Shown one piece after another: positions 6,101 to 55,765 of a DNA stretch of 64,000 nucleotides. Positions within the stretch are counted from its first letter, which is position 1. Each line of letters begins with the position of its first letter. The position numbers were made by a program, and so were the translations under genes. Below the pieces are notes generated by a model, which ran no database searches, was not told where the DNA came from, and worked only from the letters and a program-made list of their open reading frames with translations. The DNA is from Ascidiella aspersa (Eukaryota): assembly GCA_963924565.1 (NCBI GenBank), contig OZ004607.1:10168001-10232000 (forward strand), given 5' to 3'.

Positions 6101-9100
6101 GGTTTTGAGGGGGATGATTTTCGGCCAAAAATTGCTCAAGCTAAATAAACTTAACAAAGGATTACGGATCACTTCATGAGGTCTCAAATTGTGGCCCCAA
6201 ATGTCAAAATTTTACAGAAACTTTCCTGTTTACATTTTTTCTTTCTTTTTTGTGACGAGAACAAGCCAAGACATGGCTTCTCGTAGAGTTCGCAGTGTTC
6301 GTAACAAAATATCTTTGTTTTATTTGACTAAGATTTTTACAGCTGGCAGTAACCAACCGTATTTTTTCAACTAAAACTCATACAGGATCAGACGTTTTGT
6401 TTAGAAGGAAAATATATTTCGCCAAGTGGCATCCACAGTTTCCTTAATTCGTTTTATTTGTGAATATACGCGTCAGCGGAGCAGTGGTCGACTGGCTAAA
6501 GCCTGCCGCCGATGGTTTTGGATTCTATAAAGATACACCCTAATGCATTTTTTTAAATGCTTTTAGGCAGTCAGTTGAACTCTTTTTTTGTTGTACATGT
6601 GTGGTTTGCGTGTTGTTCTTTAAATTGTAGCTTACGCCCCGTGTTATTTCGCAATACATTTCTCCATTATCTTGCTCGTCGCGAACTATAAGCCAAATCG
6701 AACTCAAGCCAAAACCAAGCTGCTGTCAGTTTTCAAAGGGGCCGCAGCGATCTCAAAGCGTGTATTTCCTGGAGCGCTTACAGCAGCTTTAGTTTTACCA
6801 GTTGACGTTGCGTATCAGGCCCACCCAACACTTTTTGGTCGGGCCTTGCTCCAAGGCAAGGCCGTCTTGTTGCAACCGCAGCCACAACAAAAGTAGCGAC
6901 TAGCGACACAACAAAGTTTGCTTCTTTTGGCTTCGTGTTGGTTTTGTCACGTTTGTTACTCTCGAAAGATTACTTCGCGTGATTCATTGCTCTGGATTAA
7001 ACGCACGAGTGTCTCTATGTTTCGATTCTAATAGACTAGAGATGTATGACTTATTTGTTCGATTACCGTTACCCACTTTTTGTGAACAAGTACGTTGTCC
7101 GTTTTGATACCAGTTAATTTTTATTGACTTGTGAACGTCATTAAAACCTTCGCATGGAGTCGTAACTTGCTTTAAATGAAAAAAAATCTACCACCCATTG
7201 TTCGTGCTTTTGGTTTAAATCACGTTTCTAGGTAAAATTGTTGCATTAAACCGCTTTTCATTACTTCACCTTTATTTTATAATTGTATCGGAGCTGGAAC
7301 CACTTGAAACTCTTCAGTAACGTTTCTATATTTTTTCCTCAGGACCCCGATTTATCCGCATTGTGAACCAACCTGAAAAGATGTTCGTCTTTTTTACCGA
7401 GGAAGCGGTCGAGAAAAATTCCTACGTGAGTTGAAATTCTTTTCGTTCCGTCATTGTATCTATAGGGCACTCGTTCTTATTCCTTTAATGGTGGTGATCA
7501 CCTCAAAGTCTAGCTACCTATGTCCTATACTTATTATAACAAGCCAATTTTTTGTCCTATTAGCACTGTCTCATTTCGTAATAAACAAAGATTTGAAATA
7601 TAGTGAAGCGTTTCACATTTTCGGAATCAAAACTTTTGTCGTTGGCCAGAAGTTTGTGCTGTATAAAAAAACTTCTTTCAACGCATGCAATCATGGGCTG
7701 ACAGTCTTGCAACAAACTATAGACTGCTTGTGAAACGCAAAACACTTTAGCAGTTGCATTGTTGAATTTGGAAAAAAATACGATTTGGGTAAAGCATTGC
7801 CTGGTGCCCAAAATATCGGGTATCGGTATCGGAATAAACTGTCAAGTATCGTAAATCCCTATACTCAATTTCTTCCCACAGCAAATCGTAAGCCGCGTGG
7901 CTCAAGCTTGCAAGTCAGACGAAGGCGGCCCAAGTCTGCTGCAGAACCAGTTCTCCACCTTCTTCAAGGCCACCCTCAACTGCTCGCTGCCCGGCAGACC
8001 GCCCTTCTACTTCAACGAAATGAGTGACGTCACCGATGTCGTCACGATGACGATGCTGGACGGACAGAGCAAGTTGCGCGTGGTGTTCGCCGTCATGAAC
8101 ACGCCAAAGTATGACGTCTCTTTGTTTTGTTGTTTGCCTGAATATAAAATTATATATTTTTGTTAATTTGGCGACAGTCAGTAAAGTTCTGTTTCGACGT
8201 GATATAGTTTACAGCAGTGCTTCCCAACCAGTGGGTCGCGAAGCATTTCTAGTGTTTTTACAGTTTTCTATTAGATCGTGAAATTATTGCATTACCGTTA
8301 GGCGTTACGTAACATTGCGCGTGAACTTGTCTCCAATCAAGCCTCGACTTGATCTGTTAATATCCAATTATCCAATATACCAGCTGAAGTATCACATGAA
8401 TAGTAAATTGCATAGGTGTATACATTGTTTCTTTTCTCGTTAATTTGTTTTTAATTCGTTTGGTAATATCGCATTGTGGGTCGCTCAATAAAAGTTGCCC
8501 TAAACGTGGGTCGCGAATTGAAAAAGGTTGGGAAGCACTGATATACAGCATGTAACACAATTGTTATATGTTAGCAAACTAATAGAAATAATACCGAAGG
8601 GTAGAAAAGCGTGCAAACCTTGATAAATTTCGATTTATACATTGCAATATGGCGAACGAGGTGAAAGTCGTGCCCATTCGACTTTTTGATAACTTATTTG
8701 CAAGTGTTTGTTAGCAATGGAACATTTTCAAATTAGGAACCGTGTAATACGAAAAACACTAGATATTTTTTTTAATTTTTACAGAAATAAACATTGCCTA
8801 AAAGTTATGGATTAACGCAGACGTAGAACAAGCTTTTTTTTTCTCTTCGCCAAATAGTTTTGTGTCAAAGCAAGCTTGTACACGAGTATTTTATAAAAAA
8901 ATCTTAACAAAAATCAGACTTTTTAACCGTTTTCTGACTTTTTCGCAGGAATAGCATCCACGGTTCGGCTGTGTGCGCTTTCGTGATGGAAGACATCGAA
9001 TCGGCTCTTAACGGTCCTTTCATGGAGCAACAAACTTTCATGAACCAACAGTTCTGGGGGGTTTCCCCCACATCACCCACGCCCCACCCAGCAAGGTAAG

Positions 9101-15100: not shown

Positions 15101-18100
15101 TTTAAGGGAAATTGCGAAGGAGTTTAATTTTTTTGAAATTTAAAAATGAATCATTTTTAGGAAGGATTATGTTAAATTATCAGCGGGAAATTTCCTACAA
15201 ATAAACTTAACGCCATATGTAGAGATAGAGGAATCAGGTGGCACTGTATAAAGACAAATTGTATTTGATTCTCGACAAGCTTTCGCACAACCGTGCTTCA
15301 TCAGGTCAAAGTGTCATATGTAGAGATGTTATTCTTTTTGTCTCCTGTCGTTGTGTACAATAACATGACAGTTTATATTGTGGGATTCTTAACGGTTAGG
15401 CCCACTTACATTGAATTTATTCTATTAATTTATACTCAGCATTAGTGTGCTGGCTTGCTGAAGTACCCTTTCACACATAAGCACTTCTATACAAAACTGA
15501 TTTATTCCTTTTCGTTATATATTTTTTTTAACTTTTAAATATCTTTTAAACCCACAGACAAACCGAACTCAAACGATGATCGTGTTACGCTACCCGGCGA
15601 TGAAGAAGCACTCGGGAACGACACTGTTCAGCAGCCCCCTGGCGCCACGGCCGAGGCCGCCCGGAACCAGACCGCCCTGGCCGTGGCGTCGGGCCCCAAT
15701 TGGGTACCCTTTGCGGCCATGGGCCTTGGTGTGGGTATATTTATTGTGCTGGTTCCCATCTGCCTTTACTTCCTCATTACGACGGCCCGAAAGCGAAAAC
15801 AGCAAATGAAGCCGAGTGGGAAGGCAAAGCCGAACGGAAAAGTACCGAACGTGAGTAAAAAAAGGGGAATTTGGTTGTTAAGTAGATTGGGACAACTATA
15901 GGCGAGTTTAGTATTTTCATTTTCAGTCTAATCTAGACTTGAACAAATTATTTGGGCGCGAATGTAATTTTTGGGCAAAATTGCAAACCGAATCTGTCGA
16001 TCAATGATGCAAGCAGGGCAGGCTAGAAAAACAACTAGCCTGCAGTGAGGTTCGAACTCACGACCTCCGGTCAACTGACCGTCCGTTCGTCCGTTGACCG
16101 GAGGTCGTGAGAACCTCACTGGAGGCTAGTTGTTTTTCTATCCTGTCCTGCTTGCTTCTGGTGGACAGATTCGGTGAGTATGCGATGGTTTTCGGTGTAC
16201 TAATGATACGTAAGCCGTAATCGTTGGTCAAAAAGCAGCTTCAGAAGGGCTAGATCTCAGTTGTTAACACACATATGTGTGTGCATGTTTCATTGAGCAG
16301 CAAAAGTTGTATGATTTTTAACGTTTTTTTTTACTGCATAGGGATCGGCGCGCAAGAATTCGTCCCGCGACAATCGAAGGGATTCGAATCAATCGAACGG
16401 ACGCAAAGTTCGCCACGGAAGCGGGACAAGTAATACAAGGTGCTTATTGCTTACAGTTTAACTCTTGTAAAATTATTAGTAAGTTTTGCTTCTTTAGAAA
16501 AACTCAGTTTAATACACTGGTGGACCCTGAATATTTTCCAGTCACACTTGATTTAAATTCACATCTGGCTTTTCTTGTGATCCGTTTAAGCTAAAATCTT
16601 ATTCTTATGAAAAGCGTTTTTTTCGGTTTGTATTTAAAAACTACTTTTCTAAATGAACATTATTTTAATGGGCAGTTCCGCTCTCTTGAATTTTTTTTTG
16701 TTTTTCCTGCATTCTTTCGATGCATTTTTTTGACGATATAATGTTTTACGTTTTCGTGAAACAACATAGATTTTGTGCAAAAATAGATGTTTCCCTGAGC
16801 CGATTTCTGAAACCGATTCCTGGAGCCACTTGAGATTTCACTTCAATTGCATGATCGGTTTGTCCAATTCTTTGGACAAAAAAAATTGCCAGAAAATAAA
16901 CTTTTAGATTTTCAGTTAGATTTTATTTGTAAGGAAAAACAACTTTTCACTGAGTTCACACTTTACGCCCTATATTTTTATTCTTCTCGCAGACTCGTAA
17001 GCAACCGAGGTTCGGTTCATGAAGAGGGTAAGAGAAAGAGAAACATCACCGAGTCGAGCAACCGGAGCGAGGACGACCCCTTTTCGGGGGCTGACCCCGC
17101 AATCACCCCTGGCACCCCGGGTGACGCAAGGTCAAAGGTACGTGCCCCCTCAAAAGCCGTCGGCTCAATAAATTTTGGATAAAGTACGTTGCCTTCCATG
17201 AGTCTTTTGAAAAAAGGACTTTGGTTGATATAAGGTGTTTTCATTGAACAATTTTCAATAAAATTGAGTTATTTTTCTCAACTTTGTACATAAAACGATT
17301 AGATTGCTACTTGTTGTTTTTTGGTATTTTTTGTGTTTTTTTAGCTGGTTGGTTGCTCATTATCGAAAGAGTTTACCAACTTTTGATGGTTTTACGTTTT
17401 ATTACTAAACACTGAAATACGTCGTTATTAGTAAACGAACGTTGGCGTAAACTAAATGTCGAATTTAGTGTAAACAAATTATGGCGACGACCTTATTTTT
17501 TTGTAAATTCAAAAAAAAAAATTGAAAGTTCCGAGACTAAATGTCGCTTTCTTACGTTAAAACGTAATTTATATAAAGAAACACTTATCCTTAAACATTC
17601 TGCTATACACTTACACACACTACACGAATAAGAATTGGCGGATTTATATAAAACGACCTGTATTAAAGAACATATGGCAAACGTATATTATGTAAGTCCT
17701 GCAGTCCTTACCCCACGTATAACAAGAACGACATGCACAACAAAGTGTAAACATTCTTAAACCTTTTCCAGCTTCTGTCCACCTCGAGTAGCCACGGCAC
17801 GAGACGCAATCCTCGAAACTCGATGCCATCTACAAGCTCAGTACCTGAGACTGGAGAGGAGATGATTGCTCAGAGTCCAAGCGTAAGTTTTATAGGGTTT
17901 TATTCGAGTTACTCATATGTTTACAACTTAAACACGATAATAAAATCCAACATTATTAACAACAAAGTGCGTATGTTGAAAAAATCAGAGTAAAGCTTTA
18001 TCAGTGAGTGCGCATTAATGAATAATCTTTACCTTAAAATAAAGCCTATCCTGTTTTATTTCTATTTTTTATTTTATTTTATTTTTTGTGAAAATCAAAT

Positions 18101-25088: not shown

Positions 25089-25216
25089 AGATAAAAGATT
25101 CATTCTTTTATTAGCAAACGTTTCGGCAATTTCTTTTGCCATCATCAGTGCAGTAAGTCTGTGCTTACTGCACTGATGATGGCAAAAGAAATTGCCGAAA
25201 CGTTTGCTAATAAAAG
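25089..25216. mobile_element. Inverted pair of Penelope-like terminal-repeat fragments, each with a minimal hammerhead motif
   Basis: Perfect 53-bp inverted repeat (25105-25157 / 25164-25216, loop TCTGTG). Each arm reads CTGATGA-T-GGCAA-AAGAAA-TTGCC-GAAA-CGTT-TGC...AATAAA. Flanking direct repeat AGGTTTAATTAT (25077-25088, 25215-25226). Confidence 0.8.
25165..25210 (+). ncRNA. Minimal type-I hammerhead ribozyme motif (mirror copy on the minus strand at about 25111-25156)
   Basis: CUGAUGA at 25173-25179, stem II GGCAA/UUGCC, GAAA at 25197-25200, palindromic AAACGUUU stem III, stem I GCA/UGC. Confidence 0.7.
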
Positions 25217-54282: not shown

Positions 54283-54486
54283 ATGTGGTCTCTCTATTTA
54301 ACCTTCTTCATATTATCGTCCTGTGTAGAGCGAGAAGGCTTTTTAGATTCAATACGATACGAAATTTATGTAGAATTGCTTGCTGTAGTTTTGATTCTAG
54401 GGTTTGGTGGTATCTGGTGGTGTCGTGACAGAAAAGAACAAATATTAGCAAAGGTCGGGGACAAAATGTTCAAGTGGCAAGAATAG
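54283..54486 (+). CDS. Possible small single-pass membrane protein, or last exon of an unrecognised spliced gene
   Basis: 67-aa ORF with hydrophobic stretch IYVELLAVVLILGFGGIWWC followed by basic RDRK. A plausible acceptor at 54328 and several well-formed upstream exon-like segments. No recognised homology. Confidence 0.3.
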   Translation: MWSLYLTFFILSSCVEREGFLDSIRYEIYVELLAVVLILGFGGIWWCRDRKEQILAKVGDKMFKWQE

Positions 54487-54909
54487 AAAGCCATGTGTGT
54501 CTTGTTCAACGGCATTAATTCGGAAGGCACTCTTGACAAATAATTGCAGTTTAATGTCAATAATTCTCGCAACGGTGAATGCAATAGGCATGTGTGATTA
54601 CTTCTGTTAAATTGGGGATAAAGTCTGTCATTTGGTAAATTATGTTCTGTACTGATTTTGGTCGGTGTTTAACTATATGAATTATGCATTTTGGTCTATC
54701 AGTAAAGCATTTTGTTCTATCAGACAAACATCGCTTGCAGTAATACGCCAGAATTCCGACGGAGTGTGGTTAAGACGCAACATGAAAAAACATCAGCTGA
54801 TATTAAAGGTTTGCTTAGCTTAAACGTTTTACAGATAATCCTATAACTACAGGTTATTGTGCATTAACATATATAACAATAACTGTTTTTAAACATATAT
54901 AACAATAAC

Positions 54910-55389
54910 GTCCCGGCTTGACCGGAGGGTTCGAACCTCACTGCATGAGTTCGAACCTCACTGCAGGCTAGTTGTTTTTCTAGTCTGCTTTGCTTGCATC
55001 ATAGATCAACAGATTCGGTGAGTCTGCGATGGCTTTCGGTGTACCAATTATACGTAAGCCGTAGTCGTTGGTCAAAAAGCAGCTTCGAAGGGCTAGATCT
55101 CAGTTATTAACACACATATGTGTGAATGTTTCATTGAATAAATGATATGGTACTGTGGATCCCCTTCTATGAGGTTGCTTGTACTAACAGATTGAGCAAG
55201 CATTGGCGCATGGCTGTTTCTCGACTCGTACCCTTCTGAGCCTGCATAGCTCAGTTGGTAGAGCGACGGTCCCGGCTTGACCGGAGGTCGTGAGTTCGAA
55301 CCTCACTGCAGGCTAGTTGTTTTTCTAGTCTGCTCTGCTTGCAGCATAGATCAACAGATTCGGTGAGTCTGCGATGGCTTTCGGTGTAC
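54910..55389 (+). mobile_element. Partial-tandem (about 1.4 units) tRNA-like-containing mobile repeat
   Basis: A 5'-truncated unit (54910-55239) is followed by a second unit starting at the tRNA-like head (55240) and truncated at 55389. Flanking direct repeat CTGTTTTTAAACAT (54883-54896, 55390-55403). Confidence 0.8.
55240..55314 (+). ncRNA. tRNA-like cloverleaf (pseudo-tRNA / SINE head) with A and B boxes and a downstream T5 terminator
   Basis: Acceptor stem GCCTGCA/TGCAGGC, D arm GCTC-AGTTGGTA-GAGC, anticodon stem CGGTC/GACCG with non-canonical loop CCGGCTT (no U33, no purine 37), T arm GTGAG-TTCGAAC-CTCAC; TTTTT at 55320-55324. Confidence 0.75.
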
Positions 55390-55765
55390 CTGTTTTTAAA
55401 CATTAATATATTTTTAAAAGCCAGCGTTTATTTTAAAAGTTTTACAAGAGATTCATAGTAAATTATCAACTGCTGTTGAATAGCTTGGTAAGTAAGGTTT
55501 AGATATGAAGTTGGAAGAGTTATTTTTGGTCTGTGCAACTCAGAAGAGAAAATGTTTATCAGTTGTCATACTACTTTGCAGTTATTGTCTCAATTAAAGT
55601 TTGCATTTATGTTTGCAGGTTGCCTATGTTCGTATGTGGGACGTTTGAATAATTAAGGATACTTTCTTGTTTCGCGCTTCAAATGTAGACCAAAAATTGC
55701 CAACTGAGCAACGAAGTCCAAAAAGCCCAACACTAGTTTGTTTACAAAAGACGAACAATTGAGAT

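Follow-up and report, generated by a model that had tools for sequence, protein, structure and literature searches.

What kind of mobile element is a non-coding repeat that carries an intact tRNA-like gene closed by its own putative terminator, and that is inserted as a partial tandem with neither border at the tRNA head? This question is raised by a copy in the 64,000-nt stretch of Ascidiella aspersa DNA analysed here (the window). The initial annotation, made from the window alone, proposed a tandem or circular-intermediate retroelement in which a tRNA mimic has replaced a ribozyme as the processing signal. Here, the repeat is followed through the host genome assembly (G000; 308.6 Mb, 75 contigs).

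Anatomy of the insertion

The insertion consists of a target duplication, a 13-nt filler, u30-345 with a small rearrangement, u1-150, and the target duplication again (Table 1). Its repeat period is 345, close to the 350 bp first estimated, and the 14-bp flanking direct repeat and the absence of poly(A) were described correctly. The cloverleaf is called by ARAGORN, matches the Rfam tRNA model with 55 bits (E 8.4e-11) and folds as such; the TTTTT reported 6 nt past the acceptor stem is also present. What had been taken for a scrambled anticodon loop, however, is a CCGG palindrome conserved in 141 of 161 heads, and the anticodon stem is fully paired too. Both borders had been read as cut mid-unit. 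This is true of the 5' side, with its filler and the deletion and duplication in the partial head, but the 3' end is no random truncation: it is one of two ends that are fixed family-wide.

Table 1. Features of the window insertion, in window positions; unit numbering starts at u1 = 55240, the first tRNA base
Feature	Positions	Strand	Basis
Left target-site duplication, 14 bp	54883..54896	.	
Filler of 13 nt, copy of the target DNA immediately upstream	54897..54909	+	
First head, 5'-truncated (u30-75), with short deletion and duplicated T-arm	54910..54969	+	
Hairpin u69-94 with T5 run in its loop; predicted lock on the 3' acceptor strand of an internal head	54963..54988	+	
PLE-like cis region: upstream motif, start site 1 (55044), tail motifs, start site 2 (about 55139)	55004..55139	+	
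Spacer	55140..55239	+	
Intact tRNA-like head, u1-75, with A and B boxes	55240..55314	+	ARAGORN, Rfam, folding
Anticodon loop: CCGG palindrome (tRNA positions 32-35) and 3 variable bases	55272..55278	+	
Predicted TSEN cut	between 55277 and 55278	+	
Last, incomplete unit; its end is start site 1 (u150), the origin of reverse transcription	55315..55389	+	
T5, putative Pol III terminator	55320..55324	+	role suggested by folding
Right target-site duplication, 14 bp	55390..55403	.	

Because the first head lacks the A box and the 5' exon, this copy cannot make a two-head precursor, and with a single intact head it is probably not a source. The last ~30 nt of the spacer, which form the 5' flank of the head, are retained in young and older subfamilies alike. 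Possible short exons lie on either side of the insertion on the + strand (about 54373-54456 and 55620-55650), which suggests an intronic insertion site. The window contains a second, two-armed unit copy at 15987-16296, both inner ends of which stop at u38, beside the predicted cut of the tRNA-splicing endonuclease (TSEN).

Probable insertion by Penelope-like machinery

How do the copies enter the genome? Ends were mapped in 63 distinct loci, drawn from the first 100 listed head matches after removal of overlaps and segmental duplicates. They provide 100 outer 3' ends, 49 at u142-156 and 38 at u235-250. Instead of the random permutation that had been envisaged, 87 of the 100 thus lie at just two sites. 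An inverted arm is present in 37 of the 63 loci, and at most one locus has an arm that begins at the head. In a set of young copies (70 subfamily-B loci on contig C1, 34 of them two-armed), the arms combine site 1 with site 2 in 28 loci, use one site twice in none, and leave one end unanchored in six; one older locus employs site 1 on both sides. Exact target-site duplications (TSDs) of at least 9 bp flank 48 of the 70 loci vs 0 of 70 mismatched controls, and they are mostly 12-14 bp long and 73% AT. A motif of ~10 nt follows both start sites (u151-162 and u249-260), and its two occurrences change together from subfamily B to C; it is possibly one binding site for each RT protomer.

According to the available text of PMC8557442, the signature of Penelope-like elements (PLEs) combines partial tandems with an inverted arm and a one-sided 'tail'. 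Frangieh et al. attributed this tail to a pair of internal RT start sites, and the PLE RT is predicted to be a dimer that cuts and extends both strands (available text of PMC11167929). In the present family, partial tandems occur together with an inverted 5' arm, with two internal sites of RT start and with a tail on one side only. The unit is almost certainly mobilised by PLE machinery, and the PLE- or retrozyme-like geometry suggested at the outset is borne out by the two fixed 3' ends, the inverted arms and the target duplications.

A LINE-dependent, conventional tRNA-SINE with a local tandem duplication would likewise have a tRNA head with A and B boxes and TSDs. Yet it would not produce two fixed internal ends, an arm from the head in no more than one of 63 loci, or the lack of a simple-repeat tail, and in a search for a LINE partner the body was absent from all of the top 30 RVT_1 loci. 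The mapping of arm starts and of the two ends rules out the conventional layout, with its start at the head and its LINE-derived or simple-repeat tail. The statement that this is not a standard SINE was well founded; the chance that it is one after all is close to nil.

Family size and relatives

An exact 19-mer from the head has 1,132 matches in G000 vs 0 for its reversed control, which as a count of exact matches is a lower bound on the number of heads. The marker of subfamily B is found 675 times and an older head type 393 times. Units measure 345 bp in subfamily A, 348 bp in B and 351 bp in C, the last known from one locus. Their heads are identical at 72-75 of 76 positions and three body segments at 73-92%, and an older family D of the same layout is about 70-75% alike. 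With their tandem non-coding units and TSDs they fall within the range of retrozymes (about 170-400 bp, TSDs over 4 bp).

Among older relatives (L332-L361 and L393, e.g. G000:C2:36770000-36772600) there are modules of 139-141 bp, each a head plus short spacer, in varying number. Such short modules occur in 12 of 30 older loci examined (one fetched twice); L393 comprises seven heads, and the long body sometimes follows. Joining at heads would be compatible with modules being gained or lost. At L285 (G000:C4:33731800-33734600) fragments of a D-type body are repeated with no recognisable head. Two small contigs (L131 on C35, L132 on C11) bear what we take to be a UvrC-like ORF together with rRNA-like sequence, and are possibly symbiont or organelle DNA in the assembly.

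Arrays and the nature of the template

Some loci contain many consecutive units. Long arrays were selected from 40 scored candidates, 20 loci being taken from the top of the long-array search; they reach about 12 turns or 4,150 bp and have PLE-type ends, several with a clear TSD. Can their turns tell us what was copied? In 11 of the 15 arrays with at least two whole turns a variant is common to every turn, and the other four are consensus-like; three long loci gave no units in this comparison, since their head marker was unmatched. The turns of L324 differ at many positions, yet one variant is common to them, and one B array has a variant in two of three turns. In subfamily A, 15 of 47 common variants (a hand count, each variant being present in five or more other loci) are discordant among the turns of a single locus; a pure monomer circle thus cannot have been the template in every case.

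Later turns stop at site 1 in 6 of 27 passes vs 1.2 expected (P 0.001). At the 5' end of the head, copies stop in 1 of 70 passes. As copying passes the 5' end of the head, simple Pol III monomers are not the template. Recurrent site-1 stops and variants shared between turns are, by contrast, what copying round a monomer circle predicts, and the sharing of array-specific variants points to rolling-circle copying. We consider it likely that the template is circular, as had been proposed for the intermediate. Monomers of retrozymes are circularised by RtcB (available text of PMC7229834), and an RT rolls round tricRNAs in vitro (available text of PMC4536317). A single RNA-seq run of 7.79 million reads yielded 929 and 1,295 matching reads in both orientations, from a library of unspecified strandedness. 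Read ends do not pile up within the element; the library misses short RNAs, and genomic tandems would likewise give rise to head-to-tail joints.

Alternatively, long linear transcripts could read through tandem master arrays and be mobilised by PLEs, with the tRNA as promoter or relic and growth by unequal exchange after insertion. Arrays of 5-12 turns exist, the turn-discordant variants of subfamily A are accounted for, and two arrays adjoin assembly gaps where longer ones may be hidden. But the longest arrays found are insertions themselves, with PLE-type ends and in several cases a TSD; there are at least eight array haplotypes, each of which would need a longer master; and the tRNA stems stay paired beyond the A and B boxes. 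We regard this explanation as distinctly unlikely.

Autonomous elements and the position of the ribozyme

The assembly contains many young elements that combine an RT with GIY-YIG and bear minimal hammerheads, and the hammerhead-bearing PLE families show the same two-end geometry. One family has its two ends separated by 36 nt, five related families by about 75-90 nt. These five share short motifs with the unit, placed at corresponding distances from site 1. When a profile of the five PLE tails alone was run on the window, a true PLE end ranked first and the two unit copies second and third, the latter with weak E-values of 0.14 and 0.65. From its hammerhead cut onwards, PLE family P2 aligns with the unit from u76 onwards in subfamilies A (z 5.4) and C (z 6.0), but the alignment fails for B (z 1.4) and D (z -1.1). 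The distance from the tRNA 3' end to site 1 is 75 nt, and that from the P2 hammerhead cut to P2 site 1 is about 69 nt. Judged by these alignments, the unit body is probably PLE-terminal DNA with the tRNA in the former ribozyme position. The idea that a tRNA structure occupies the place of a ribozyme is upheld in this sense, for the head sits where the hammerhead of autonomous PLEs cuts. The search for an autonomous element sharing the unit was successful in part: it returned PLEs of the same geometry, but the exact partner family was not among them, as no close match was found in 70 GIY-YIG loci and 20 more.

Full PLE units also occur in tandem with a 3,422-bp period (L146-L151, G000:C2:30.63-30.64 Mb); this array is a candidate rolling-circle product of an autonomous PLE. 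PLE end fragments are scattered in the window as well (about 6330-6545, 15304, 25148-25173 and 40000) and include the end of a long-tail family and hammerhead-like cores, among them an inverted pair.

Does the unit contain a ribozyme of its own? One alternative is a retrozyme whose body hides an unrecognised self-cleaving ribozyme and whose tRNA is only a promoter, as in schistosome Sm-alpha. It would agree with the size, the tandem layout and a body that folds strongly (z -3.1). However, the unit has no match to an Rfam ribozyme at E up to 5, and a hammerhead core followed by GAAA is absent from dimers of A, B and C on both strands. We think this reading very unlikely.

The tRNA-like head and its predicted fold

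The head has A and B boxes and is identical to host tRNA-Tyr at 48 of 76 positions and to tRNA-Lys at 50 of 75. Descent from an intron-bearing tRNA-Tyr was considered, but tRNA-Lys, the other isotype compared, fits equally well. Host tRNA genes form very large tandem arrays of their own (G000:C1:6.38-6.41 Mb and 26.19-26.21 Mb; C3:31.37-31.46 Mb), made of an intron-containing tRNA-Tyr (159-bp period at 26.19 Mb) and of a tRNA-Lys-like gene (660-bp period), with 1,203 and 703 pattern matches in all.

CCGG stands at tRNA positions 32-35 in young and old heads, and the next two bases, which belong to the predicted bulge, change between families. Folded without constraints, a head-body-head RNA terminating at the second T5 (consensus A, consensus B or locus L062) has as its MFE structure an intron-containing pre-tRNA, assembled by pairing between the first head's 5' half and the last head's 3' half. 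It includes a bulge-helix-bulge in which the two CCGG loops pair over 4 bp, with a 3-nt bulge on either side. For the outer acceptor stem the probability is 0.96-1.0 when the RNA stops at the second T5 and 0 on read-through. Among the 16 possible palindromes only CCGG gives the helix, and none of 13 non-palindromes or 40 random loops does. The helix reaches a probability of 0.33-0.5 in the A and B consensus sequences and of 0-0.19 in five older A pairs; for the single C locus and the old short modules the value is 0. In L312 one substitution tips the RNA into another fold.

Are these structures conserved in evolution? The hairpin pair 75:88 is compensatory, being C-G in 109 and T-A in 66 of 185 non-independent heads, and together with the acceptor pairs 6:69 and 7:68 it shows compensatory or G-U changes. 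The stem covariation that had been asked after therefore exists as compensatory changes, but it exceeds shuffled alignments only modestly (30/500 and 21/500), with few events behind the signal. Alignment A2 used 24 of 28 rows, leaving out one that was mis-oriented and three with indels.

In folding, the intron-containing tRNA-Tyr of the host shows the same 4-bp helix and 3-nt 3' bulge, which indicates that tRNA splicing operates in this host. The features of fly tricRNA precursors described in the available text of PMC6614914, a C-G proximal pair, a 3-nt bulge and 6-nt spacing, have counterparts in the predicted folds: a C32-G proximal pair, a 3-nt bulge at the 3' site, and 6 nt from C32 to the end of exon 1. 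In a fly reporter a stronger helix led to less circle (same source), and a eukaryotic TSEN is able to cut a bulge-helix-bulge placed in an mRNA (available text of PMC10485636). One extra conserved base (u27) precedes the anticodon stem relative to host tRNA-Tyr and may upset the ruler of TSEN. Ends of subfamily B show no enrichment at the predicted cut (u29-40; 1 of 77 passes vs 3.3 expected); across all loci, 6 of the 13 ends within u1-39 fall at u35-38, in a post hoc count.

RNase P and/or RNase Z, named in the initial annotation as the possible cutters of the tRNA mimic, could free monomers in another way. A single head ending at T5 does fold as a clean pre-tRNA, one arm starts at u1 (L319) and two start at u77. 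However, neither cut site has an excess of ends (1 of 70 and 2 of 87 passes vs 1.5 and 1.9 expected), folding predicts a disrupted acceptor stem for the circle as well as for internal heads, and no tRNA-less unit was found. The sole pattern match to a unit with the tRNA precisely excised is an inversion junction and hence false. Processing by these enzymes seems very unlikely, and the folding evidence points instead to a tRNA-splicing endonuclease that would act in the anticodon loop. A footprint of m1A58 was sought as well, with 0 mismatches in 73 and no stops. The spacer has a branch-point-like motif, but back-splicing was dropped because the AG after it is not kept in subfamily B.

It is also conceivable that no covalent circle exists. 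A terminally redundant, linear head-body-head RNA made by Pol III could be mobilised by PLEs, with the RT jumping again and again from the 5' head to the 3' head and so imitating a rolling circle, and the tRNA would then provide promoter and transfer homology only. Such jumps account for identical turns, for some mosaic turns, and for the gain and loss of head-plus-spacer modules in older relatives. On the other hand, they predict frequent stops near u1, which are seen in 1 of 70 passes, and they leave the CCGG palindrome, the bulge-helix-bulge fold and the T5-dependent switch unexplained. We judge linear transfer to be unlikely.

A proposed route from transcript to insertion

How could a circle be made and copied? 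With circularisation by TSEN and RtcB, which the predicted folds make rather probable, the following steps can be envisaged. Pol III would initiate at one head of a two-head locus, leak past the first T5 and end at the second. The hairpin u69-94 is predicted to lock the 3' acceptor strand of the first head, so that its 5' half would pair with the 3' half of the last head and the paired CCGG loops would form the 4-bp helix flanked by two 3-nt bulges. TSEN cuts after position 37 in both heads would free exactly one unit, which RtcB would close to a circle while also joining a ~75-nt tRNA-like by-product; ligation of the released unit would restore the anticodon loop. A free tRNA-like RNA of 75-85 nt is accordingly among the predictions of this route. 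In the last step, whose footprint is visible in the genome, a PLE protein would nick both strands of AT-rich DNA about 12-13 bp apart, prime synthesis from site 1 on one strand and from site 2 on the opposite one, and copy one to twelve turns.

The scheme in its entirety, a non-coding repeat with PLE-type insertion whose RNA circle comes from host tRNA-splicing enzymes and is rolled by a PLE enzyme, we hold to be moderately probable. That the hammerhead was swapped for host tRNA splicing, with the element excised as a giant tRNA 'intron' circle and rolled by a Penelope-like RT, has in our estimate slightly better than an even chance. The element would then be a transposing tricRNA, and terminator, locking hairpin and palindromic loop would be one folding switch.

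If true, a parasitic RNA can become a replicating circle without a ribozyme, through hijacked tRNA splicing. It would also back the long-proposed, unproven idea that the hammerhead position of PLEs serves the making of circular templates, because a different cutter in that position yields the same footprint. Owing to its clean statistics, namely a single start site on each DNA strand, stops that recur at site 1 in later turns and as many as 12 identical turns, the family allows the PLE model of a dimer and rolling circle to be tested directly on a 345-nt substrate. The two-head design regenerates itself and could moreover be used as a circular-RNA expression cassette.

Comparison with known systems

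Our literature search found no paper on a retroelement that depends on tRNA splicing; most subscription papers, Repbase and Dfam entries and supplements lay outside it and may describe the family. The splicing route would be a new mechanism, if confirmed.

Metazoan non-LTR retrozymes, as described in the available text of PMC7229834 and bioRxiv 10.64898/2026.07.22.740005, are closely similar: they have short tandem non-coding units, long TSDs, co-occurrence with PLEs, pLTR-related sequence, a proposed RtcB circle and rolling-circle insertion. They are now argued to derive from the pLTRs of PLEs (the bioRxiv text). Abundant circular RNA is a further mark of the class. However, each of their units contains a type I hammerhead, whereas the 345-bp unit has none and carries a tRNA-like domain at the place of the cut; according to the model, it can be cut only with the help of a host protein (TSEN) and if two heads are present.

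Sm-alpha and Sj-alpha of schistosomes are likewise tRNA-related Pol III elements of similar size, often in tandem, and need two adjacent units to propagate (available text of PMC2770079 and PMC6765202). Sm-alpha, in these accounts, is cut by its own hammerhead, which the 345-bp unit lacks; here the tRNA fold is the apparent processing signal. PLEs and their non-autonomous forms, e.g. MRC1, share the partial tandems, the inverted 5' arm, the two internal RT start sites that lead to a 'tail' at one end, and the AT-rich targets (available text of PMC11167929 and PMC8557442). Unlike them, the 345-bp unit has no ORF, a tail of ~95 nt and a tRNA head.

The tricRNAs resemble the unit in the intron position, predicted here at 37/38, the C-G proximal pair and the 3-nt bulge. 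They are cut by TSEN and circularised by RtcB, which for the 345-bp unit is only predicted, and a transposing tricRNA is not described in the available text of the three sources on them (PMC6614914, PMC10485636, PMC4536317). In contrast to a tricRNA, the 'intron' would be the whole mobile unit bearing both tRNA halves, so that the circle would regenerate the head. In the circularly permuted tRNA genes of red algae, tRNA halves are joined at a bulge-helix-bulge and circularised. There the circle goes on to become a working tRNA, while in the 345-bp unit it would be the template for retrotransposition.
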